Positions 1,455-49,279 of a DNA stretch of 64,000 bases are shown one piece after another. The translations under genes and the position numbers were made by a program. The stretch covers positions 1,302,001 through 1,366,000 of the forward strand of contig NW_026515671.1 in assembly GCF_025526975.1 (NCBI RefSeq). Direction: 5' to 3'. The notes under the pieces were generated by a model. The model worked only from the letters and a program-made list of their open reading frames with translations. It was not told where the DNA came from and did not search any database. This DNA comes from Fimicolochytrium jonesii. Lineage: Eukaryota. The first letter of the stretch is position 1; each line of letters begins with the position of its first letter.

Positions 1455-3473
1455 ATGCCTTCTGGCCTCCTCCTTCCAACGCCGTACACCCTACCTCTCT
1501 CCCGGCTCGCTCTTCGCACCCGTATCTCTCTCCCAAGAGTCCCCACCACCCACTTCCAAAGCCTCTCAACCACCCCCATCACCAAGATGCCCGCCCCCAT
1601 CATCACCGCCAACGACCTCGAGAATGGCCAAATGAAGTCAGTCGACGTTGGTGGCGACCAGAAAGTGCTGATCGCTAAAGTGCAGGGCAAAGTGTATGCC
1701 ACGACGAACAAGTGTACGCACTTTGGCGCGCCGTTGGAGAAGGGCGTGCTTACAGCCGATGGGCGCTTGACTTGGTAAGACATTCATACGAAAGTCAAAC
1801 ACCCAGACGAAAGGGAGGCGGATAATTGACGGCATGATATGTTATTCAGTCCATGGCACGGCGCCTGCTTCAATGTGAAAACCGGCGACATCGAAGACGC
1901 CCCAGGCATGGCCTGCCTCAAAACCTTCCCGGTGGCCATCTCCGGCGACAAGATCCACATCGAAGTCACCCCCGAAGCCGCCAAGCAAACCGTGCCTATC
2001 CCCAACCGGCCGTCCCCAAAAAAGGACGACACGGTCGTGATCATCGGCAACGGGTCCGGCGGTCAGTCCGCCGCTGAGGCGTTGCGGGAGCACGGGTTTG
2101 GTGGGAAGATCGTCGTTTTCGGGAAAGAACCGTACCTCCCCATCGACCGCACCAAGCTCAGCAAAGGCCTGGACGTGTCCGCGGAGAAGATCGCGTTGCG
2201 GCCTGAGGAGTTCTACCGCGAGCGTGAGATCGCGCTGCACGCCGAGAAGGAGGTCAAGGAGGTTGATCTTGCTAAAAGGCAGGTCACGCTGACCGATGGG
2301 ACGACGCAGGGGTACTCGCATCTTGTTCTGTCGCCGGGCTCGTATCCCCGGCCATTGGACGTGCCTGGGAAGGAGCTGAAGAATGTTCATTTGCTGCGGT
2401 CGTTGGTGGATGCCAATGCCTTGCATAAGGCGATCAAGTCGAAGGAGAAGCCGAAGGTTATTATTGTTGGGACTGGGTTTATTGGACTGGAGTTGGCGTC
2501 TGTGCTTGCGAAGGACGGGACTGCTTGTGTGACCGTCTTGGCAAGGAATGAGGTATGGGTCGCCACATCCATCCGCTTTGGAGTCCATTATGTTAGACTG
2601 AGGCCTGTTTTCGAACCAGACACCACTGAAGCCCGTTCTGGGTGAAGAGATTGGAAAGTTCATCAAACGATGGCACGAAGAAAAGGGAGTGACCTTCAAG
2701 GTCGCGCAACCCAAATCGTTCGAGCCTTCAGGTTTGTCCCCTCGCGCATGCACCCTTTCCGGTGATATCGTCCTGGATTGGCTCGAACTGACTGTCCTTC
2801 TTCCATTCTCGCAGTGGTAAACCCGTCAGAAGTCGGCACAGTAAAACTCACCACCGGCGAAGAACTCGCCGCCGACGTCGTCCTAGTCGCCATCGGCGCC
2901 CAGCCTGCCACCACCTTCCTCAAACCCACCGGCCTCCTCAACGACGACGGCTCCATCGAAGTCGACAACTTCCTCCGCGTGCACTCCCACCCGGAGGTCT
3001 ATGTCGCCGGCGACGTCGCGCGGATTCCCTTGGGGGGGACCGACCAGAAAGTCCGCGTGGAACATTGGAACGTCGCCCGCAACACGGGGCGCTCCATCGC
3101 GCGGAACATCGCCATTGCCTCCGGGTCCCAACCCCCTGCGTCCGCAGATTCCGAACTGGAACCCTTCACGAAAGTGCCGTACTTCTGGACAGTCCAATAC
3201 GGCAATTCCGTACGATACGCCGGCGGCGGCCCCTTTGACGAAGTGTATGTGGACGGCGACTTGACCAGCAAAAAAGGTGATGAGACCAGCTTTGTGGCGT
3301 ATTATGCAAACAAGGGCGCCGTTGTTGCCGTGGCGAGCCTGAATAAGGATCCGGTTGTGAGTCAGTTTTCGGAGCTGTTGAGGTTGAAGAGGGTGCCGAC
3401 TTTGGCGGAGATTAAGGGCGGCAAGAGTATTTTGAGCGTGCCATTGGGCCCTGCCAACGCTGCGAATTTGTAG
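1455..3473 (+). CDS. AIF-like (AIFM3/Nfrl type) Rieske [2Fe-2S] + FAD-dependent pyridine nucleotide-disulfide oxidoreductase
   Basis: Rieske motifs CTHFGAPL and C-PWHGACF joined across an intron; GxGxxG motifs (IIGNGSGG, IVGTGFIGLE), AGDVA, RVEHWNVA, VPYFWT; several short introns. Confidence 0.92.
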
Positions 3474-5505: not shown

Positions 5506-7837
5506 TCCTGTGATTCCGCATCTGTATCATAGTAGCATATAGTAGCTTTTTTTAATCATCGGCATATCACGGCGTATTTATTTTGCGAACGTCCTCGGAA
5601 TGCCGAAGACGCATAGTCCAAGTAGGATGACCCCTTCCTCGAAGATCCTTCTCGCCTCCCTGTTTGAGCGTCGGGCGAATCCCTAAAGGGAGAGGTAAGA
5701 AGTGGTAAATCCTACGACTGACTTACCTTTTTAAAGCTCCTCCATCGTCTGCCGAGGCGAAAGATCTACCACATCGCGGCCGACTCCCCTGCCGCCATGC
5801 CGCCAGCATGCCCTCATGCCAAGAGTGATGCCATATGTGATGAGAAGACGAAAGACCTTAGCCTGTTCCTGCCAAGACGGGACAGAGGTGTACCACCAAC
5901 AAGAGAACTTTTCCGCGTCTGATCGAATGTTGCAACTTCACGAGCCACTCCTCCACGTCCGATCCTCCATCTCCCTCGCGGTCCAAAAGTCCAGAGCCCA
6001 GAACTGAAAACGGATCCGTCTGACAATCGTAGAATACGCCTCACTGATGCCATTGATTGGAAGTCGTCGTTGTCGTAGAGCAAATCCATGGTATTCCGGG
6101 CGCGTTGGGGTCAAAGGTAGCCAGGCCGTATTGCCACGTAAATTCACGGCTCACCACACATCTTTCTGTCCGAGTCTTGCGACGCCGACTTGCGGATAGG
6201 CGACACCCATGTGGGAAGGGGCGAGAGAGAGATGAGAGTCCATATGCATTGCGAGGAAAGGAACACAGGCACGGCGTTCAGCTTGCTGCCAATCCGAGAC
6301 TTGCCGTCGACCCTGCGAAAGACAAAAGCAAGGAAGCATAACAGTTGTCAGCACATGGTAATCAAAAGCCGCGGTAACATTGGTGTGTACGAATGACGGG
6401 TGGAGAACGAACACCATAGTGCTTCCTACCTATCCTCCCCAGCGGCGGAAGGGAGGACTGTCTCAGTAGTTCTCGAAGTTGAAAGGATGGTGACGAAGAC
6501 GGGACACAGTGAAGTGCTGCCTACCTATCCTCCCCAGCGGCGGAGGGGAGGACTCGAGGGAGGACTCGACTCTTGACAATTCACGAAGTTGAGAGGATGG
6601 CGGCGAATAATATTGCGTTGCGGTTTGTCGAAAGGTCGATGGCAAAATGGCGATGTGTCGCGGTTTCGTAAGGCACGGCGTCGATCGGTCAGACGTTGTT
6701 GGCGACTTGTATGATCGGACACGTTTCGAAGGGGTGCTGCCTACCTATTGTCCCCCGATATCGCTCAGGAGGAGAGAGGAATCAGATCAGTAGATCTCGG
6801 GAGTCGAATGGCGAGACGGCGTAGTGTGTGTGTCGAAGTGGCCGAGCGTCGAATGTTGGTGGCGAACTTGGATGTTGCCAGATATTGGATTCCGAAGATC
6901 GGACACCCCCAGGGAGGGGGTGCCGCCTACCTATGTCCCCCCGAGAGGAGGAGGAATCAGACCTGGAATGCGAAGGGGAAGTCGAAGTAGTGACCCAGGG
7001 GATTGGCGGATTTCCGGGTTTGCGAGTCGTCGAAGGCGTCGAAGGCGTCGAATGTCACCGTCGAAAATCGGCGCGAATCGGTACTGAATGACGAATGTCA
7101 AAGTGATGGCCTGGCGGGTTGTATTGATGGGTTGACGGGTTGACGGATTGGCGGGTTGGCTGGTTGTCGAGATGTCGAGGGGCGTGTGGCGAGTGTCGAA
7201 GGCCAAGGCGAATCGAAGGTGAGTGTCGAATGGCGACCTGGCTCGAGCATCGAAGGCAAATGTCGCTAGCGGTCGTGAATATGGTGCAATGTCCGATGTC
7301 GAGGGCCGGACACCCCCCCAGTGAGGGGGGATGCTGCCTACCTATCCATTCCCCGCTACCAGAGGGGGGATGGAATCAGGCCTCAGTAGTTCCCGAAGGC
7401 GAATGGAAGTCGAAGGCGAGCGTGAGTCGGATGTCGATGCAAGGCGAGTCGATTGTCGAGTATCGGAGTGGCGAGATGTCGAAGGCGGCGAAGACGGGTC
7501 GATTGTCGAATGGCCTACCGGGGGGCTGGTAAGGAGTCGATTGTAATTCGGGGAGACGAGATGTCGAAGGTGGCGGAGGCGAGTCGATTGTTCACTGGTG
7601 AGCCGGACTCAGTATTGAGTGGCACAAGGGCGAAGTATTATCGGCGTGATATTTTGGAGGATGGCAAGATGACGTATGCGGAGACTTACCGAGAGCGGAA
7701 GATAGTGAAATGGTCGGTGCCGCGAGATGTCAGGCGTCGAAATCCACGGAACAGCTGTAGGATGGTGAACTGGCATCTGCGGCGAACGAAGAAGGTCAGT
7801 GGTATTCCGCGGCGAAAAAACGAGATACTGACTTGGG

Positions 7838-8345
7838 CGTCGGACGCCGAAGCGCTGCCTACGTATCCCGCGTGGGGACTCAGACGTCACGTAGTTCTGA
7901 GGTCGGGCGCCGTAGCGTTGCCTACGTATCCCGAAGGAATCAGACCCCACGTAGTTCTCGGACCGCACGCCGTAGCGCTGCCTACGTATCCCGAAGGAAT
8001 CAGGTCGCACGTCGTTCTGAGGTCGGGCGCCGTAGCGTTGCCTACGTATCCCGAAGGAATCAGACCCCACGTAGTTCTTGGGACCGCACGCCGTAGCGCT
8101 GCCTACGTGTCCCGAAGGAATCAGGTCCCACGTAGTTCTTGTACCGCACGCCGTAGCGCTGCCTACGTATCCCGAAGGAATCAGGTCGCACGTAGTCCTG
8201 AGGTCGGGCGCCGTAGCGTTGCCTACGTATCCCGAAGGAATCAGACCCCACGTAGTTCTTGGGACCGCACGCCGTAGCGCTGCCTACCTATCTTCCCCGT
8301 TGGCGATTGTCGGGGGGGAAAGAATCAGGCCCTGGTAGTTCTCCA
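7838..8345. repeat. Tandem array of ~60-bp units (8 units including divergent flanking units)
   Basis: Core GCCGTAGCG(C/T)TGCCTACGTATCCCGAAGGAATCAG; GCCTAC core at ~7857, 7920, 7980, 8040, 8101, 8161, 8221 and 8282. Confidence 0.95.
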
Positions 8346-8358
8346 GGATATGTCCCCA

Positions 8359-8590
8359 GGATTGCCCAGTCCAGATTGCCGAGTCCAGATGAACGGAATG
8401 ATACCGAGTCCAGATGAATGGAATGATGCCGAGTCCAGATGAACGCAAACCAGATTGCCGAGTGCAGATGAACGGAATGATGCCGACTCCAGATGAATGA
8501 TTGCCGAGTCCAGATTGCCGAGTCCAGATGAACGCAATCAGATTGCCGAGTCCAGATGGCTGTATCGAGATGGCATTGGCGAGTCCGTGG
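8359..8590. repeat. Short degenerate tandem repeat (GATTGCCGAGTCCAGATG-type, ~10 copies)
   Basis: Repeated (GAT)TGCCGAGTCCAGAT(GAA) with variable short spacers. Confidence 0.9.
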
Positions 8591-11171
8591 ATAGGGATTG
8601 CCGGGCGGAGATTGTCGAAAGACCGGACACCGAAGTGCTGCCTACCTACCTCCCCATGGCGATGTCGAAGGGGAGGATCAGGTCTTGGTAGTTCTCGGAA
8701 TCAAAAGGAACGCCGCCGAGTAGACATTGGTGGATCGACATTGCCGAGTCGAGTGTTTGCTAAAAGACCGGACGCCGATTCCCGAAGAGGTGTGCCCGCA
8801 GCAAAGCTAACGGGAAAGCTGACAGAGCGGGCGTTGATGAGGATTAGCGATGCGGAGTGTAGCGTGGAATGGACCTTGAGGAAGCAGAAGGTGGTCAGAA
8901 TGAGAGCCATACAAGAAACGATGTGCAAAGAGGGCTAGGTCATACCGGGGCGATGGGTGCCCCGAGGCAACCCCGATCCCAACGAAAGACGGTCAGATGC
9001 CGAAGGGAGGGTGTGTTGAGACCAATGACGCGAGGTATAGGGGCGAAGTGAATAAGGAGTCTTGGCAAGAAAGTACTGGAGGCGACTTGCGTAGGAGTGA
9101 TGGGTGGTAGGCGACAACTGTTATATCCGAGTAGCGTGGCTGACGACTTCCGATGCTCCGATGATGTGAGATGACTTGCGACGATGGTGGATGATCTTGA
9201 TTATTAGGCCTCAGCAGCCGAGACCAACGGAAAGTCCCCGTCGCCGCATGCCTGCCCTTTCAGTGAGTCTTTGAGCCAAAGTCGCCAGCCTCACTGAAGG
9301 GCTTTACCATGCGACGAGGACAAGCGATGGTGCATTCCACTGAGCGTGTGGCAGGCGAATAGTGGAGGGAATGGAGAGTAGCGTGGAGAGCCCATGGACT
9401 AAATGAAGTAGAAGATCATGAGACCATGAAAAGTTGAGAGAGGCAACGAAGAACGTACCAGGGCGATGGGTACCCCCAGGCAACCCAGAGCCTGATGAAC
9501 CAGTAGAGGTTGCAAGTAGTACTGCCAATGATGTCGACGTCTTGATGCCTTGATGTTGGGATGCGGGTGGATAGTGCTGGATAGTGCTGGGTAGATTGCC
9601 GAGTAGCGTGGCTGACGACCTCCGAGTGTCCGACGACGTGGTATGAATTTGGAGTGACTGTAGACGCTTGATCTTGGTATTTGGACCGGAGACCGAAGAA
9701 TGAACGGCGACACTTGCGGTAGAAGCGTGATGACGATGACCGATATTAATATTGCGGAGCGCCGACGATGAACTATTGAAGCGTGCTAATGACCGGCGAA
9801 GAGTAGATGTCGTAGTGATGAAACGTTGCCGACGACGGCGAATCACACCAGTTTTACCAATTCAATCATATCATTGCCTCTCCATAGAGGAGCGAGTTTT
9901 CAGGCCGGTGCAGTTATTGCATCAACGGTCTTCCATCCTCACCAAGAAAGAATGACCTTTCAACAATGATGCGACTTCACATGGGTTCGCTGGGTGGGGA
10001 TTATCCAGGGTTCGCCGGCGAAAGGTACGCTTGAGGCTTCGAGTGAGCTGACGACGAAGCAAGGAGTCGCAGGAGGCTGAAGTCGGAGTGGGTGCCGACG
10101 GAGGACGCGTCGAAGGACTTGATGCCGTAACTGCTGCGCGGATCTTGGGTGCACGGTGATCGAGCGCACAACGAGAGTTTTGAAACGAAGCGGTCTTGAT
10201 AAAGCGGTGAGGGCGAAGGTAGCAACGTCCGACGAAGTAAGGCAGGCTTGAAAAGGACCTGAGGGTTGTAGGTGAAGAAGGTGAAAGAAGTCAGAACAAG
10301 GACGGAGGATGACCCACAATATAAACAACATACCATACTTACGTGAATCAGTGACGACGATGACTTCATTCGTTGGGCTCAAGAAGCGGTGTGGAAGGTA
10401 GGTGGTACTGAGAGACAGTCTTGTGGTATGGTGAGGATGTGTGACGAGTACACCGGGTGCTGCCGTAAAGCTCGGGTCCAAGTCGGTGATGACCAAGAGA
10501 GGTAATGCTTGTTGAAGATCTTGAAAGCCGATGATCCGAGGCATCTGGAACCCGCTTGGTTTGGCCGACGACGACGGTGTAGGTACTAGTCGACGAAGAA
10601 CTTTTCACGACGAACGATATGGTGGTGGGACCTTGGCCTTCGGGTATCAAGATCGAGAATCTTGAACGCGTATCGCACGCGTGGGTGAAATAGCCGATGA
10701 GGATGAAGGAGCCGACGAACTTGAAGGATCTTGTAACCACACGAGAGGGTCTTGGGCTTCTTGTGGTTTGCCGATGATAGCAAGGCGACGATGAGCCTTG
10801 TATGGTAGATCGTGAAGACGATGTCGGGCAGAATCTTGAATGGCGAGCGGGTAAACGCGTAAATAACGCGTGCTGGCCAGCGAACTTGACAGCGATGGAT
10901 GGATGGAAGACCTTGAGAGCGACGACCGCGAGAGTAGATGAAGGCAAAAGACAGTGCGAGCGATGAAGGCGCCGACGAAAGCAAGTGCGAAAACATGTGG
11001 AACCGTTGTATGTGATATGCGAGTACGGGTTCGAAATCGAGTTTGGATGGGCGAAGGAAGTTGGGAAAAAAGCGATGGGGGAAATCGCTTCGAGGCCAGT
11101 ATTTATAGGCTGCGAGGTCTGGGCGAAAGTGGCGAAGGCGACCACTCTTGCGCCACTTCCCGAGCCGGGCC

Positions 11172-11478
11172 AGTTCTGGTTTGACGTATCGAATTGCGCA
11201 AGTCGCGCAGGGGTATGGCGATAGGGATGGGATGGGCCTGAGGGGTTGATTTCGCTAAGCGGAAAACGCGTCCCCGCACGTTGAGGTAAGCAGACTCGGA
11301 CAGGGCAACTTGACCTCGCTGCCTGCCGAGTTCTAGGTTGACATATCGAATTGCGCAAGTCGAGCAGGGGTATGGCGATGGAATGGGATGGGCCTGAGGG
11401 GTTGAGTTCGCTAAGCGGAAAACGCGTCCCCGCACGTTGAGGTAAGCAGACTCATACAGGGTAACTCGACCTCGCTGC
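11172..11478. repeat. Two-copy ~157-bp tandem duplication
   Basis: AGTTCT..TATCGAATTGCGCAAGTCG..GCGGAAAACGCGTCCCCGCACGTTGAGGTAAGCAGACTC..GACCTCGCTGC starts at 11172 and again at 11329. Confidence 0.95.
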
Positions 11479-42345: not shown

Positions 42346-43611
42346 TTGATCGTCGTAGAATCGGTTCTATTTTTCGTTTTGGTGAGACGGATTGCAGAGA
42401 GTATGGGCGTCAGACAGTTGCAAACGAGAGACGGCGAACATAGTATGGGCTTACCATTGGACGGAGTACACCTGCTTCAAGGACAGTGTCCAATGGGTTG
42501 CTTCGTGTTTTACTGCTGAACACCTGGAGGTGTAACTCTCGGCGAAAGCTCTTCAGCTGAGAGCAAGTTTTCTTCTACGTCCGGCAAGGGGGCACAGCAT
42601 GGGAGAGTGGGTGGCAATAAGTTATATGCAGTATGATAACAGTGTGGGTTTTGGCTGCCGGGGGTGGTTGCGAGTTCGCAGTGAGCCGGTCCCGTCAAGA
42701 AGGCCAGCGGGACAGGCAAACGGCGCGAAGGTTTCTGTCAACACGTAAGCGGGTTGGCCTTCGAACGACCCCTTGAGACCCCGCAATCACGGGAACGGGC
42801 TTGCCTCGGCTAACAAGGACATGTAAAGGTAACCGGCAGCGGAGTCATAATCGCATCGTCTACGCTTTCTACATGCTCGCTCCCTAGAATATGTATTGTC
42901 CCAAGAAGGACTTTGGGGTGCTACCATGTCAAGGGAATTTTCCTGATTGCTCGGAATACAGTCACAGAAAGAGAAAAGTGTTTTTGAGAGACATGGGCTA
43001 CTCCAAGATCAACAAATTTTTTTCTTCACTTCAATACACTGTTTTCAGCCCTCTCGGAAGGGTCCATTATCGTCCAAGTTTCCTCTGACGTTACATGCTC
43101 CTGCTTCTGCTGCGGCGTGTCATCCGCGAGTGCTTGCTTTTGGCAGGCGTCTTACGACTCCGGGCTTTGCTGCAGGTACGGCTTTTGCTCCGACTACGGA
43201 TCCGGCGGCTACGGGCCGTTTGCCTCCCTCCACCATAGTAGATGATATTGTTGACGTTCGGCGACTTTCTCCACAACTCGTTGTGGTTGCGCCAAACGTC
43301 ATTGGGGATACACCCGACGCCTCTCCACCAGACGTGGCCTTTGTCACAATACGGCTCGCGTTCGCGGGCCGGTGTGATACCCAAGGCGTGGTGCCGCCTG
43401 TCTGTTTCGTCCCTGTTCACTCGCAGGATGGAGGTCAAGCGTTGAAGGTGAGCCATTTTATCATGGTCTTCCATGTAAGTGGCAAGCAAGGACTCGGTCC
43501 GTGTGGCCTGTCTTTACTTTTCTGCCTCATAATACAAGTTCCAGGGTTTGTATCGTTCCTCGGGCATTGGCAGGACCCGAGTGGCGGCGGGTGGCGGGGG
43601 AGGTAGGTTGT

Positions 43612-43766
43612 TCGCTTGCTGTTGACGCAAGTCCAAGGCCCCTTCATAGCTTGAGCGGTGACGGGTGGCCGGGGAGAGTTCCTGCTGTTGCTATTGCTCG
43701 CTAGCTGTTGACGCAACGTCCAAGGCCCCTTAATAACTTGAGCGGTGACGGGTGCCGGGGGAGGGT
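43612..43766. repeat. Two-copy ~86-bp tandem duplication
   Basis: TCGCT(T/A)GCTGTTGACGCAA(C)GTCCAAGGCCCCTT(C/A)ATA(G/A)CTTGAGCGGTGACGGGTG at ~43612 and ~43698. Confidence 0.9.
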
Positions 43767-43980
43767 CCCCGCCTCCAATGAACCCCATCAACTGTTGCAA
43801 CATGTCCTCTTCTTGCTTCATAGATATCTAAAATGTTTCTTAACTCTTCAGGCTCGGGGCAAATGGCCGTCACCGAGACCCAACCATCCGAGTCTCTGCC
43901 GCTCCCTCTCTGATCGCTCAATTGTAACCGGCCGCCGATTTCTCCCCTTCTTGTTCGCTTCAGGAAGTTCGAGTATAGCG

Positions 43981-44809
43981 CTAGTTGCGGTTGTCCCCAC
44001 CACCCACTGGTCCAATAGGAAAAGGTAAGTGAGGCGCGGAAGACCTATAGAGCAACCTGTCGCTCTTCTCCATCTCCCGAATCTGAGCCAGTTTGTTCAG
44101 GTAATAGATTGCGGTCTTCTTGTTCTCCTCCTCCCATTGTTTCCCAGCCTGTCGCGAGTTGCTCGGCGCTTCGAATTCAGACTCCAACAAGGCGGTAGCC
44201 ACAGCCAGAGTCATTCGATTTCCCTCTATGTCTTCAGCCGGGTGAACGTCGGAACTCGCAACTTTCAGAAGCTGCATCGTCTCGGCGAAAGTGCGTTGTG
44301 ACAGCTGAGCATCCGGAAACCACTCCTTGCAGATCCTATCAGCCCTTTTCCCTATCATGTGTCCGAGCTATCTCACGGGCTTGCCCGATAGACATCTCCA
44401 GAATGTCATCTTCTTCCCAGTAGGAAGTGGTATCTACCGCCAGAAAGGCCCGCTTCAATTCGTACTCTATGTTGATGGCGATCGTCCTTCGGATTGAGCT
44501 TTCGTGGGTGTCGGTAACGAGACGGGCTACTTGTTGAATCAACTTCCCGGTCTTGATAGCGAGATCGTCCACGGCGGCCTGAATCGTGCCCACAGACGAT
44601 TCAAGATGCTCTGTGAACGTGAGGACAAGCTCGACCTGATCCTGAAGCTGCCGGATACGACTCGTTGTCACGGCATCGCGCAGTTGCTGACGTTTCTGAC
44701 GGAGGTCGTTGAGCTCGCCCGCATGCGCCACCTTCTGCTCGACGACCATTTTCCTGCAGAGCTGCAGCTCATGGAGCTGGGTGAGAAGTTGAGCTCTGCG
44801 TGCTTCCAT
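43981..44809 (-). pseudogene. Coiled-coil hypothetical protein, frameshifted near 44340-44360 (pseudogene or unresolved intron)
   Basis: ORF 44809-44339 (heptad-rich) continues in another frame as 44358-43981 (ICKEWFPDAQLS..KKTAIYYLNKLAQ). The obvious GT..AG candidate does not restore the frame. Confidence 0.45.
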
Positions 44810-45214
44810 GTTGAATGTCGTTCCTATACCACAGGCACAGTAGCAACCACAGGCACATACGTTAGCGCTGGACTCGTGACGTTAGCGCGGGCGTGGGTGC
44901 TAACGCGTGTGAAGCCACGTTAGCGCAGGACGAATGCCACTCACCATGCCTACAGCCTTCACGCTCGGCCTTGACGCGCGGCCTAAAAGGAGCCCTCCTT
45001 CCCAACCACCTTCCCTCCCAACGCAATTGTGAGCAGTAGGCCTCCCCGCTTTCACCTTCAGCCGCCACCAGGTAGCAGCCGCAATTCCTCACCGCTCTCA
45101 GCCTCATTACCACAGCACTGACGTGAGCTCTTTGACACACAGCCATCGCGGCAATCACCTGCAGCACCTCATCTCTAGCACGCACAGCACAGCACAGGCA
45201 CAGCACAGCCAATC

Positions 45215-48116
45215 ATGTCGCTCCAGGGGCACCTGTGGTGTGGCTTCTTTACCGGAGCCACCACACCACGGCGGAAGAGGAGGAAGGTTACTCCGGCTAC
45301 CCCGCGGCTGCCCATAAATCTGCCAGCCGCTGTGCAGACACCATTGCAACAACCCCCGCGATTCGAGTTCCCACCGTCTGTCCAACGCCACTTGCCCCAA
45401 GCAATTGCAGACATGGTTAGCGAGAGTTCCGGCGAGAGTTCCGGCGATGAAGACGGGCAGCAGCAGCAGCAACAGCAGCAAGGGCTTTCACCCGTGGACA
45501 GGGGCCTGCAGCGTCCGTTGAACCTCCCCGCTCCCATCCCGTTCCTTTTTCCCAGCACACCGGGTGGACCCCTGGTGTATGAACCCCCGCCACCACCACC
45601 CCCTCAACGACCCCGCTCGCAAACACACGCCAGCACCAAGGTTTCGCTTCACCGAATCATCCATAATCAAGCTCAAAGGGAGCAAAGGGAGCACCTGACA
45701 GCATTCATCGGCAATGTTCACATCCTTGCGCGCCACACCACCTTCTTTCTCAAGTACTACCTTGGTGAGTTTTTGGGGTACACTGCACTGTATATTTCCC
45801 ATGAAACAATGCCCTGACCGCAATGCCCGCCACAGCTGACCGTCCTCTACACGATTTCCCGGACATCACCGACAGGCACATCGGTGTGATGTTTGAGCTG
45901 CTCAACAATCCAGGCTACAATGGCAATCCGGTCATCGCGCAAGAGTTGCGTCCACGGGTTCAAGACTACTGTGATGTTCACGGATTCGCCCCCATCCGCA
46001 TGCGAAATTGCCAACAGACCGCAGCGTACACGGCTACGAGCATCTTCACAAACCTCAAAGTCAACGTACAAGAGCATTTCATTCAAATGCTTCTGCGCTA
46101 CGTCAATGAAAGGCTTGGTTTGAAACAAGTCGTACTGCATCTCCGTAGAGCCGGAGTCAACCGAGCGCAGCGGAGACGGTATTATCAGCGGTTCCGTCAA
46201 TTTACAAAATACGCGACGTTTGAGGAGTTTCCAACCGAAGAGGAGTTTGCCCGGCTCACACGACTTGAGCGGACTGTCCTCGACGAGCTATGGGCTCTGT
46301 TTCCTCCCCAGGATGAGCCGCTTGCGTACAGCCTTGCGGTGGACGCAATGCCATATTTAGGTGAGTTAGTATATTTCCGCCCCCCCCCCCCCCCCGCTTC
46401 CTCTTTTGTCTAATCATGGTCCGCACCTGCCTCGCCTCATCACAGGTGCCTATTGTGAGCTCTCACGCCTCTATGAGCGCCGTGGAATGCGGCTGTTTTC
46501 GGCTATCCCGCTGCGCAAATCTCGAATCCAGTCATCTGTTCGGATCGACACGCTGATCCTAGGCACTCATATCCTGGGCTTGAGCCGAAGTCGCATGGGG
46601 AAATTCACCGATGAACGCAAGCGGGAGCTGTGGGGGCAGTTTATCAACGTGAATGTAAGTCTCTATCCCTCTGCGCTTATTTCACTCACCTCACGTCGCT
46701 GAATGACGGATTGCAGGACAAGGTCTTCAAGCATCGAAAGAAGCTTGGTCTTAAATTTGATGGATCAATCAGCACAAACGGGTATTCCGCTACCATCCAC
46801 TTCAAGAAGCCAGGGCTCAAGTATGGGCATTGGGCCCGGAAGCGCAGCAAGGCCCAAATGCGGGAAGAAGTCAAGCAGCTGTATTTTCAGCACCACATCG
46901 CCGAACTACGGGAGGCTCCAAACATCGTCAGCATTGATCCGGGCAAGCGTGACCTCTTGTTCTGTCGAGACATCAAGAAGGAGCGGCCATTTAGGTACGT
47001 TTCAGTTGATTACTACTGCCCTGCTGTCCCCGCTACCCCCCCCCCCACCCCCGTCTCCGCCCGCCAGCCCCCCGTCTCCACCCGCCAGCCCCCCGTCTCC
47101 ACCCGCCAGCCCCCCGTCTCCACCCGCCAGCCCCCCGTCTCCACCCGCCAGCCCCCCGTCTCCACCCGCCAGCCCCCCGTCTCCGCCCGCCAGCCCCCCG
47201 TCTCCGCCATCCCCGTTGCGGCGACATTCCGTTGCAGCGTCCTCACAATTCACCACCCCATATCAGATACACATCCAATCAACGGGCGGTCGAGACAAAG
47301 TCTCGGTACTTTCAAAGAGACATGAGAGAGCGAAAGATCAATGCCGGCATCGCTGAGATGGAATCACATATTCCATCGCACAAGAGCATGAACATCGAGG
47401 CGTTCTCAGCGTTCATTGTGGATCACGTACATGCGGGTATGATGTATCATGCATTGTCTTCAAATTTGGTAACACGTGGGCTGACATCTATATCCCAGAT
47501 CCCGCCCTGGATGAGTTTTACCAGGATGAGATTCACGTCGCTCGCAGATTCAAGGTGTTCTCACTGCGGCAAAAGTCTGAGAGCAAGCTCATCAAAAACA
47601 TGCGACGCCTGTATGGAAAGCATTTTTCGGTCATCTTGGGTGATTGGAGTGACGCTGGAAAAACCATGCGCTTTCAGGAGTCATCAAAGACCAAAGGGTG
47701 AGTGACCATCATTGTTTTTTATGTATCATTATGCTAACTCATCATGGAACAGATTCCGCACACTCTTTGCGAGAAACGGCATTCCATGCTACTTGCTGGA
47801 TGAGTATCGAACGTCGTCCGTGTGCCCACACTGCCACGGGCGTGTGAGGAAAAACATCCAACGCCGGCTGTCACCTCGGCCGTGGCAAGCTCGAAAGGGA
47901 AGAATGGAATTCGTCCATGGATTGGTGGGTTGCCCCAACCCCGAATGTATCAACCAAGACTGGACGCCATTTGAGATTCCTGGAAGACGACCACTACGAC
48001 TACGGATGAAAGTGCACAATCGGGACGTCCTAAGCACCAAGAATTTCGTCTCGATTGTGCGCTCGGTGGTGTTTGGCGATGGCCGCAGACCAGACGCATT
48101 CTCCCGTAACCGGTAG
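45215..48116 (+). CDS. Fanzor1-type (eukaryotic TnpB homolog) RNA-guided RuvC endonuclease, 7 exons, ~764 aa
   Basis: Exons 45215-45764, 45836-46360, 46446-46654, 46717-46994, 47267-47436, 47499-47697, 47753-48116 (2295 nt, all GT-AG, frame-consistent). Motifs: FDGSISTNG, RuvC-I IVSIDPGKRDLL, RYTSNQR, VILGDWS, RuvC-II LLDEYRTSSVCPHC, zinc finger ..HGLVGCPNPEC, RuvC-III HNRDVLSTKNF, C-terminal RPDAFSR. Confidence 0.92.
47048..47208. repeat. 21-bp minisatellite (7 full + 1 partial copies) inside Fanzor intron 4
   Basis: CCCCCGTCTCC(A/G)CCCGCCAGC repeated at a 21-nt period; the intron is 46995-47266. Confidence 0.97.
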
Positions 48117-48145
48117 TCTAGAATTTTCACCCCATTCCATTTTCC

Positions 48146-48352
48146 GTGGTGGTTATCTGCCATCCACATCATTGTACCTCTGCCTGAGGCGTCGCCGATG
48201 ATGGCAACTTGTATTCCTTCATCGTACAACGTACAACGAAGTCTTCTTTACATATGGCTTGACACTTGGAGTGCAGCCTCCACGGTAAGACGCGCACGGA
48301 CACCCATCATCAGTGTGCCAAGGCCATAGGTGACACTTCGACAAATGCACAG
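48146..48352 (+). ncRNA. Candidate Fanzor omegaRNA (scaffold plus putative 3' guide); ends uncertain
   Basis: Directly downstream of the Fanzor stop. Stems: CATCATTG/CGATGATG (48167-74/48196-203), TATGGCTTGACACT/AGTGTGCCAAGGCCATA (48253-66/48312-28), TGGAG/CTCCA (48267-71/48278-82); possible pseudoknot CACC (48301-04)/GGTG (48329-32). Confidence 0.5.
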
Positions 48353-49279
48353 GACCCTGGCGCGGGGCGGGGGCGGCCCGGCGGCGGAACTGGCGGCGCT
48401 GGAGGGATCTGCGTGTCTGAAGTTTTGTGCAGACATGGCATGCCGTTTTGCATATGGCTGCAGTACCGCTGCCAGGAGACTCGAGATGATATCGTATGAG
48501 AAAGTTCAGTCTGGCTTCATGACACATGTGCAGTCTGGCCTGTGGACACTCAGATTTCCGTAGTCCGTGCAAATGGTGCGGCCAGTGAAGGTCGCAAAGG
48601 ACTGTTGTGTGTTTTGTGTGTGTGTCCACGTCATGACGGCCCCCTGTCGATCGGTCACACCATTGTTGCCGCCTCCACAATTCTGGGAGGTTTTGCGAGA
48701 GACTGCGCCTGCCGGGAGCGTCTGTCCCAAAGAGAGGGTCAAGCTGGAAATCCTTCCTCCTGCGAGTCTTTCCGGCTGTGTTCCATGGATCCTGGGCCGG
48801 TTGTCTTCTGCCAGAAGAGAGCCTTCACGACAAAAGCGCGGCGAGCAAGCCCTGTCTGTCCGCCTCTCTCGTCGCCACTTTCCCTCCCGCCCCGCCTCGC
48901 CCGCTTTCGCTTCACACTTCCTCACTTTGAGTCTCAGCCAACTCTCGTTCGGAGGTCACAGAACTGCCGCTGTTGCTTTCCTTTCACACCTCCCACCTTG
49001 CGAAAGCGCACCGCGTCACTAGCCGTCACAACTCGCTAGTGCCGTCTTGTCGGGCCCAAAGTTATACCGCAAATACTAGTCTGCGACCAAGATCCCTTCC
49101 GCCAGCATCCGAGAGCCACCCTTCAAACCCGCGGCCACTACCCTTACATAGTCAAGCCCTTCCAAGCCCTGTCGTGGAGAGTCGAGATCAACTTACATAT
49201 ACAGTACGGCTTCCGCAGACGACAAGGCGCGTCAGTCCAATCACCATAGACCGCAATACCATTGGAACACCCAGCGACA

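Follow-up and report, generated by a model that had tools for sequence, protein, structure and literature searches.

A spliced Fanzor1 gene of Fimicolochytrium jonesii and the probable omegaRNA locus downstream of its stop codon

The RNA of SpuFz1, the Fanzor1 nuclease of Spizellomyces punctatus, is described as two stems with a 6-nt linker, without the pseudoknot of ISDra2 TnpB (Saito 2023, PMC10432273). According to supplementary file 5 of that study, the omegaRNAs of SpuFz1 and PpFz1 open with TCC followed by a 7-bp stem that is capped by the loop TT(A/G)TCG, and U5, C6 and C7 of the SpuFz1 RNA are reported to be gripped by W570, R414 and R387 (PMC10432273). In the account of Yoon 2023, the pseudoknot belongs to TnpB and Fanzor2 RNAs and not to those of Fanzor1, in which the last bases of the scaffold form a stem that includes the TIR and TSD (PMC10711439). 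The first stem-loop is reported to be constant at 7 bp while the region beyond it varies freely (Xu 2024, PMC11423790), and the lengths given for known Fanzor1 RNAs run from about 70 to 229 nt (PMC10432273; PMC11423790). The Spu-1 element is described with a 33-bp TIR and a TA duplication (Bao and Jurka 2013, PMC3627910), and intron-rich Fanzors with nuclear signals and up to ~9.6 introns per kb have been reported (Jiang 2023, PMC10530073). Table S2 of Yoon 2023 (PMC10711439) lists thirty-three F. jonesii proteins as HMM hits, and the accession of the gene analyzed here is not included in that table. F. jonesii was not found in the searchable supplements of Saito 2023 (PMC10432273) or Jiang 2023 (PMC10530073), and one paper was found that names both F. 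jonesii and Fanzor, which it only cites (PMC12247965). A description of the RNA of this family was not found by full-text literature searches; other supplements, subscription papers or patents may contain one. The kind of system is known, and the locus adds one more Fanzor1 ortholog and a likely omegaRNA locus, with no new mechanism.

The window, i.e. the whole 64,000-nt stretch of F. jonesii DNA that was analyzed, had been the subject of an earlier note, which took the gene upstream of positions 48146-48352 for a Fanzor. This was borne out: the gene is an intact Fanzor1 matching SpuFz1 (PDB 8gkh) with E 3.5e-139 over residues 20-562 of the NCBI gene model P0001. Its features are as follows.

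45215-48116 (+): Fanzor1 gene, seven exons and six GT-AG introns in the splice model, single terminal stop
45215-45764, 45836-46360, 46446-46654 and 46717-46994 (+): exons 1-4, splice model
47267-47436, 47499-47697 and 47753-48116 (+): exons 5-7, splice model
45765-45835, 46361-46445 and 46655-46716 (+): introns 1-3, GT-AG
46995-47266, 47437-47498 and 47698-47752 (+): introns 4-6, GT-AG

The spliced product comprises 764 residues, is open and does not correspond to one ORF in the DNA; the last base of its stop codon is 48116. From residue 202 to residue 764 the product is identical to P0001 (Fimicolochytrium jonesii), by which five of the six splice junctions are independently confirmed; for the first junction, 14 of 41 other family models agree. 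Similarity to the solved Fanzor1 extends over the full length, REC and WED insertions included, with 277 of 615 aligned residues identical to SpuFz1 (45%). In the alignment the RuvC triad D502/E661/D735 corresponds to D383/E541/D606 of SpuFz1, the rearranged glutamate lying immediately ahead of the zinc finger, and the four-cysteine zinc site is present. N385 of SpuFz1 is replaced by glycine, likewise in three other homologues of alignment A1, and the TDG motif reads TNG. Matches to SpuFz1 contacts comprise W688, R534 and R506 (aligned with the UCC-gripping W570, R414 and R387), Q602, K430 and R435, together with the guide-binding H138, K142, R271, R601 and R651. Most residues holding the stem base and the guide in SpuFz1 are retained; several C-terminal contacts to stem-loop 1 are unlike those of SpuFz1 (e.g. 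W603, Y602, R572), and the alignment has an 11-aa insertion there. Among the TAM residues of SpuFz1, Q129, Q130 and R291 are retained, N133 is an alanine (A247) and R96 falls in an alignment gap. Because of the latter two the enzyme may read CATA less strictly than SpuFz1 does, or have a different TAM. Judged from its sequence, the Fanzor1 gene is intact, with its catalytic and most RNA-binding residues retained. The N-terminus (45215-45590) is a low-complexity extension of ~125 residues that includes a basic, NLS-like segment (residues 18-25); the extension is absent in SpuFz1 and common to the longer family models. Intron 4 is filled from 47028 to 47216 by a GC-rich minisatellite with a 21-bp unit in about eight copies; in model P0035, which represents another copy, the end of intron 4 is visible and the repeat region is shorter.

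Shortly past the stop codon, two features resembling the 5' core of Fanzor1 omegaRNAs were identified.

48139-48145 (+): predicted omegaRNA 5' leader ending in UCC, matched by eye to SpuFz1, PpFz1 and the related loci L001, L003, L004 and L007
48146-48167 (+): stem-loop 1, a 7-bp stem interrupted by one bulge, with G-C as the innermost pair and the 7-nt loop TTATCTG, from folding and the covariance model

The core begins 22 nt past the stop, and at 48143-48167 a 5' UCC is followed by a 7-bp stem-loop 1, as in Fanzor1 omegaRNAs, the loop being one base longer (UUAUCUG vs UU(A/G)UCG in the known ones). Stem-loop 1 formed with a pair probability of 0.90-0.98 in all five folding contexts, and the hairpin 48146-48167 gave a z of -3.46 (1 of 200 shuffles) in a region chosen after being seen. 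Ten related loci were compared, two of which are the same element (L001 and L002) and three of which end before the 3' region (L005, L006, L010). Each of the four distinct close homologues for which 3' DNA was available (L001=L002, L003, L004, L007) is followed by the core, and none was found in the distant loci L008 and L009. By eye, the stem letters vary widely among the homologues with pairing retained, and between the conserved RP motif and UCC there are 56 nt in the window vs 53, 59, 40 and 33 nt in the homologues. A covariance model built from the four related loci alone, with the window left out, ranked the window site best within 48050-48700 (651 nt around the stop; 8.8 bits, E 0.062); over the full 64 kb the site was a weak third of five matches (E 6.1). 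A descriptor with a 6-7 nt loop found the window site and two others in 128 kb (both strands) and matched in 1 of 40 shuffled strands; the strict 6-nt-loop version misses the window site, the extra base having been allowed after the site was seen. At a background of 2 per 128 kb, the chance of such a match within 60 nt of the stop is ~0.001, again with the loop relaxed post hoc. Rfam gave no match in the interval and one chance match elsewhere (E 2.2). Taken together, these results make it likely that an omegaRNA starts at ~48139. The proposal of the earlier note that its interval likely encodes the omegaRNA of the upstream Fanzor is supported by this core, which begins seven bases before that interval and had been missed, and not by the stems on which the note relied.

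Two other readings of this DNA were discarded. An antisense RNA at 48140-48259 (minus-strand z to -4) was not accepted, as the same inverted repeats explain the folding, and a Helitron end at CTAG 48118-48121 was ruled out because the core lies beyond CTAG. Two homologues showed peculiarities of their own. In L004 (3190-3242) the core overlaps the last gene codons and the predicted scaffold of ~53 nt is shorter than any in Saito's table. In L003 twelve bases at the predicted guide start (2896-2907) recur 830 nt upstream of the gene (227-238), by chance or as a long target duplication.

The pairings described in the earlier note exist at chance level. Fourteen Watson-Crick pairs with three bulged bases can indeed be drawn between 48253-48266 and 48312-48328, but the two arms form a 12-bp duplex of -12.9 kcal/mol and all of 60 interval shuffles contained a 14-mer duplex of this stability or better. 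TGACACTT does occur twice (48260, 48331) and nowhere else in the window; an 8-mer repeat nevertheless arose by chance in 360 of 2000 shuffles (18%) and in 147 of 308 real 207-nt windows. TGGAG (48267), CTCCA (48278), CACC (48301) and GGTG (48329) were all located where the note had placed them, but none exceeds chance. Upon ensemble folding only the outer 8 bp of the 14-bp stem formed (p 0.2 to 0.8, context-dependent), and CACC/GGTG was not among the helices above p 0.15, in a program that cannot fold pseudoknots. The folding z of the plus strand was -0.19 for 48117-48360, -0.66 in a second whole-region run and -0.18 for 48253-48332. This weak overall folding was not counted against an omegaRNA because the presumed scaffolds of related loci gave -0.38, -1.62, +0.19 and -4.85.

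For a scaffold ending in a double-stranded stem, folding offered three competing closures, at 48229-48236, 48328 and 48332-48335.

48173-48204 (+): 5' arm of the closing stem (predicted, favoured), pairs with 48304-48335
48304-48335 (+): 3' arm of the closing stem (predicted), with the scaffold/element end at 48332-48335, from folding and the double-stranded end of Fanzor1 RNAs
48253-48328 (+): stem of the earlier note, outer 8 bp predicted, with a rival TA-ended boundary at 48328
48172-48236 (+): competing short second domain, in which TTGTAC pairs with one or the other GTACAA and CGATGA/TCATCG lies inside, 91-98 nt scaffold
48333-48350 (+): predicted guide, ~15 nt of flanking DNA, first base between 48333 and 48336

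The long stem formed with p 0.5-0.9 when folded to 48345-48352 and yielded to other pairings once the GC-rich DNA beyond 48355 was included. Its duplex energy of -34.5 kcal/mol was equalled or bettered in 8 of 1000 shuffles and in 18 of 419 other 151-nt windows (4%), a modest margin over chance, and it starts five or six bases after stem-loop 1, a layout as in SpuFz1. As Fanzor1 scaffolds end in a double-stranded stem, an end at 48332-48335 is predicted; closure by the long stem is the best single candidate, at somewhat under an even chance. The end near 48332 that the earlier note had proposed falls within this favoured range, although the argument behind it was wrong; for the guide register several candidates compete, the ACACTTCG of the note among them. 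A guide of ~15 nt is expected by analogy to the 14-15 nt guides of SpuFz1. Closure on TA at 48328 by the outer 8 bp of the note's stem would cost ~8 kcal/mol vs the long stem and is improbable, even though it resembles the CTA closure of L001, L003, L007 and Spu-1. If the TAM were CATA, an end at 48328 would be self-targeting, since the junction reads CATA followed by the guide. Another end, or none at all, is rather unlikely. On balance, we slightly favour an omegaRNA of the upstream Fanzor1 whose scaffold begins at ~48139 and finishes at 48328-48335, most likely at 48332-48335, closed there by a double-stranded stem and without a pseudoknot.

The same 5' core could instead belong to a short scaffold ending at 48229-48236, with the note's stem as flanking DNA. 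We consider this unlikely. Folded only to 48250, TTGTAC/GTACAA and CGATGA/TCATCG form with p 0.76 and 0.85, and local hairpins fold first during transcription. The resulting 91-98 nt are close to the size of the SpuFz1 scaffold, the 5' arm begins U-x-G like U35/G37 of SpuFz1, and an end at 48233 would be TA-ended and would match CA|TACGTT, at the candidate left end, over 6 bp in inverted orientation. However, such a 6-mer match is expected at ~6% in 230 nt and was chosen after the fact, the stem at 48233 would be closed by three weak pairs only, and the domain has a z of -1.74 (10 of 200 shuffles), its helices being displaced in the longer fold.

The TnpB-like ending supposed by the earlier note, in which the 14-bp stem and a CACC/GGTG pseudoknot finish the scaffold, is very improbable. 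The pairs can be drawn and the end point fits the favoured range, but a pseudoknot is reported for TnpB and Fanzor2 and described as absent from SpuFz1 and other Fanzor1 RNAs (PMC10432273; PMC10711439). Moreover, for any 4-mer the chance of a perfect partner within the stem is 15%, and the inner five pairs of the stem lose to GCGCAC/GTGTGC. It is also improbable that there is no working omegaRNA, the extra loop base having damaged the core, or that the element runs into 48340-48900 with its guide outside the interval. Consistent with such damage or a different end, the loop has 7 nt vs 6 nt in the homologues examined, its last G is reported to touch the active site in SpuFz1 (PMC10432273), the covariance-model score is weak and no TIR or TSD rises above chance. 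The S. punctatus protein is moreover described as able to use RNAs of gene-less copies (PMC10432273). Against this stand an ORF intact across six introns and a core at the expected distance with its pairing intact.

At the other side of the gene, a candidate left end was found by repeat search.

44856-44926 (+): candidate left end, CATA (44856-44859) followed by three exact 10-mers and one inverted copy
44859, 44879 and 44917 (+): exact 10-mer copies, within 70 nt
44880-44905 (+): inverted 10-mer copy forming a 9-bp hairpin

Three 10-mer matches at one mismatch equal the chance count for the whole window, and it is the clustering of exact copies that is notable; the motif was not found downstream of the gene. 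The clustered 10-mers look like transposase-binding repeats. The gene model P0035 is similar to the window up to ~44917-44924, which places the left end upstream of there, with the exact boundary predicted. No inverted match of >6 bp was found between 44840-44882 and 48170-48420, and no convincing inverted repeat between 42500-45215 and 48117-49260 or between ends at 48200-48700 and 1-45215. The TSD candidates ACA, GCACA and CACAGG do not exceed chance, by which 0.7 six-mers are expected. The Spu-1 arrangement of a ~30-bp TIR, CA before the left end and a TA target duplication was thus not recovered, and because no such TIR was found the window element is not classed as Spu-1, though it may work like it. 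An 18/20 match to the joined flanks at 3245 (-) in an oxidoreductase gene was attributed to chance, as 6 of 150 random blocks did equally well. On the minus strand, successive ORFs (43091-44881; 180, 125, 128 and 132 aa) that begin ~50 nt away from the candidate left end gave no Pfam match, and the first of them has no longer homologue; on both counts this also holds for the upstream minus-strand ORF 44339-44809. The series may represent a host gene that is broken or spliced. Among the homologues, L007 (2847-2860 and 3327-3417), on a metagenome contig, is a compact element resembling Spu-1; its scaffold ends in CGCACTA (z -4.85), and upstream of its gene CA is followed by an imperfect inverted copy.

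The gene belongs to a multi-copy family. Forty-two related gene models on 26 differently sized scaffolds are named Fimicolochytrium jonesii, some being fragments of one locus, and host genes with introns flank the site (RasGEF from 49262; SET, WD40, GARS and others), which identifies the window as eukaryotic; family and setting together place the gene on a multi-copy eukaryotic mobile element. An ortholog from Gaertneriomyces (P0036) is 56% identical. Other family models retain pieces matching window introns 2 and 4, and rows of Table S2 of Yoon 2023 (PMC10711439) retain, by eye, pieces like introns 5 and 6; the copies therefore appear to have spread as DNA, introns included. No transposase domain was detected among 30 exon-sized window ORFs, and neither a second nor a gene-less copy of the 3' region occurs in the 64-kb window. 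Among 89 proteins compared, no gene model of another copy reaches into the 3' DNA, and none matches the open minus frame 48222-48824 (one of six frames). Viral contigs contained no protein relative and no exact match to the 22-nt core pattern, and the prokaryotic genomes searched for protein relatives yielded one truncated contig only. In the gene model P0062 a tyrosine-recombinase-like domain (PF00589, E 5.6e-4, below cut-off) is joined to a fragment of the window Fanzor; this is probably a nested insertion, and also a lead for a mobilising enzyme. Elsewhere in the window, clustered 60-nt, 14-nt and 25-nt tandem repeats and duplications of 99 nt and 59 nt at 6400-9650 and 11164-11478 are possibly another decayed mobile element.

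With the favoured end at 48332-48335, a transcript through the right end of the element would be trimmed to an RNA of ~210 nt, made up of ~195 nt scaffold and ~15 nt flank. The RuvC and zinc domains would hold stem-loop 1 and the WED domain the base of the closing stem. The flank-derived guide would direct the nuclease to the element-free version of the locus, beside a TAM, and repair of the break from the element-bearing copy would leave the element in place. Keeping an element in place via break repair is a role taken from TnpB work. With no transposase found in the window, the element would depend on mobilisation in trans, as DNA, given that introns are retained by other copies.

Among Fanzor1 enzymes, SpuFz1 has been taken furthest towards genome editing. 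An intact relative that is 45% identical and differs in TAM-reading residues is a direct candidate for another targeting range, once its guide RNA has been mapped. The 5' core offers a practical route to Fanzor1 omegaRNAs from DNA alone, and with so many copies in one genome the boundary could be computed quickly from the assembly that contains gene model KAI8824436.1. A bolder and doubtful reading is that a SpuFz1-like six-intron family, recently amplified, was captured by a different, TIR-less kind of element and uses a ~2.5x longer omegaRNA, a 7-nt loop and a relaxed or changed TAM. If true, it would supply an intact natural ortholog whose targeting range is new, and would allow the rebuilding of the scaffold end after a change of transposon to be tested on ~40 copies.

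Compared with known systems, the window element is most readily set beside SpuFz1 and Spu-1, with which it shares the protein identity noted above, the catalytic triad and zinc site, UCC and a 7-bp stem-loop 1 shortly past the stop, and the nature of a multi-copy non-autonomous chytrid element. Unlike SpuFz1, which is encoded by a single ORF, the window gene has six introns and its protein is ~125 N-terminal residues longer; the SpuFz1 RNA has a 6-nt loop and a 75-nt scaffold, whereas a 7-nt loop and a predicted scaffold of ~195 nt (or 91-98 nt) are found here. The 30-33 bp TIR of Spu-1 has no counterpart at the candidate ends, and the TAM residues N133 (A247 here) and R96 (gap here) are not conserved. 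PpFz1 of Parasitella parasitica and GtFz1 share the 7-bp stem-loop 1, and the PpFz1 loop TTATCG is one base from the window loop, but their proteins are far more distant (PDB 9cf0, E 1e-40) and the PpFz1 scaffold is the shortest known. The Helitron2 Fanzor1 of Chlamydomonas reinhardtii is likewise described as spliced and multi-copy, with its guide RNA in the 3' untranslated region; it differs in host and clade and in its Helitron2 carrier, and its cleavage is reported as not detected (PMC10530073). Matching ends of the Helitron2 type were not found at the window element. As described in PMC10711439, TnpB and Fanzor2 also draw their omegaRNA/reRNA from the right end with a flank-derived guide, but these RNAs end in a pseudoknot, whereas Fanzor1 RNAs end in a TSD-containing stem.
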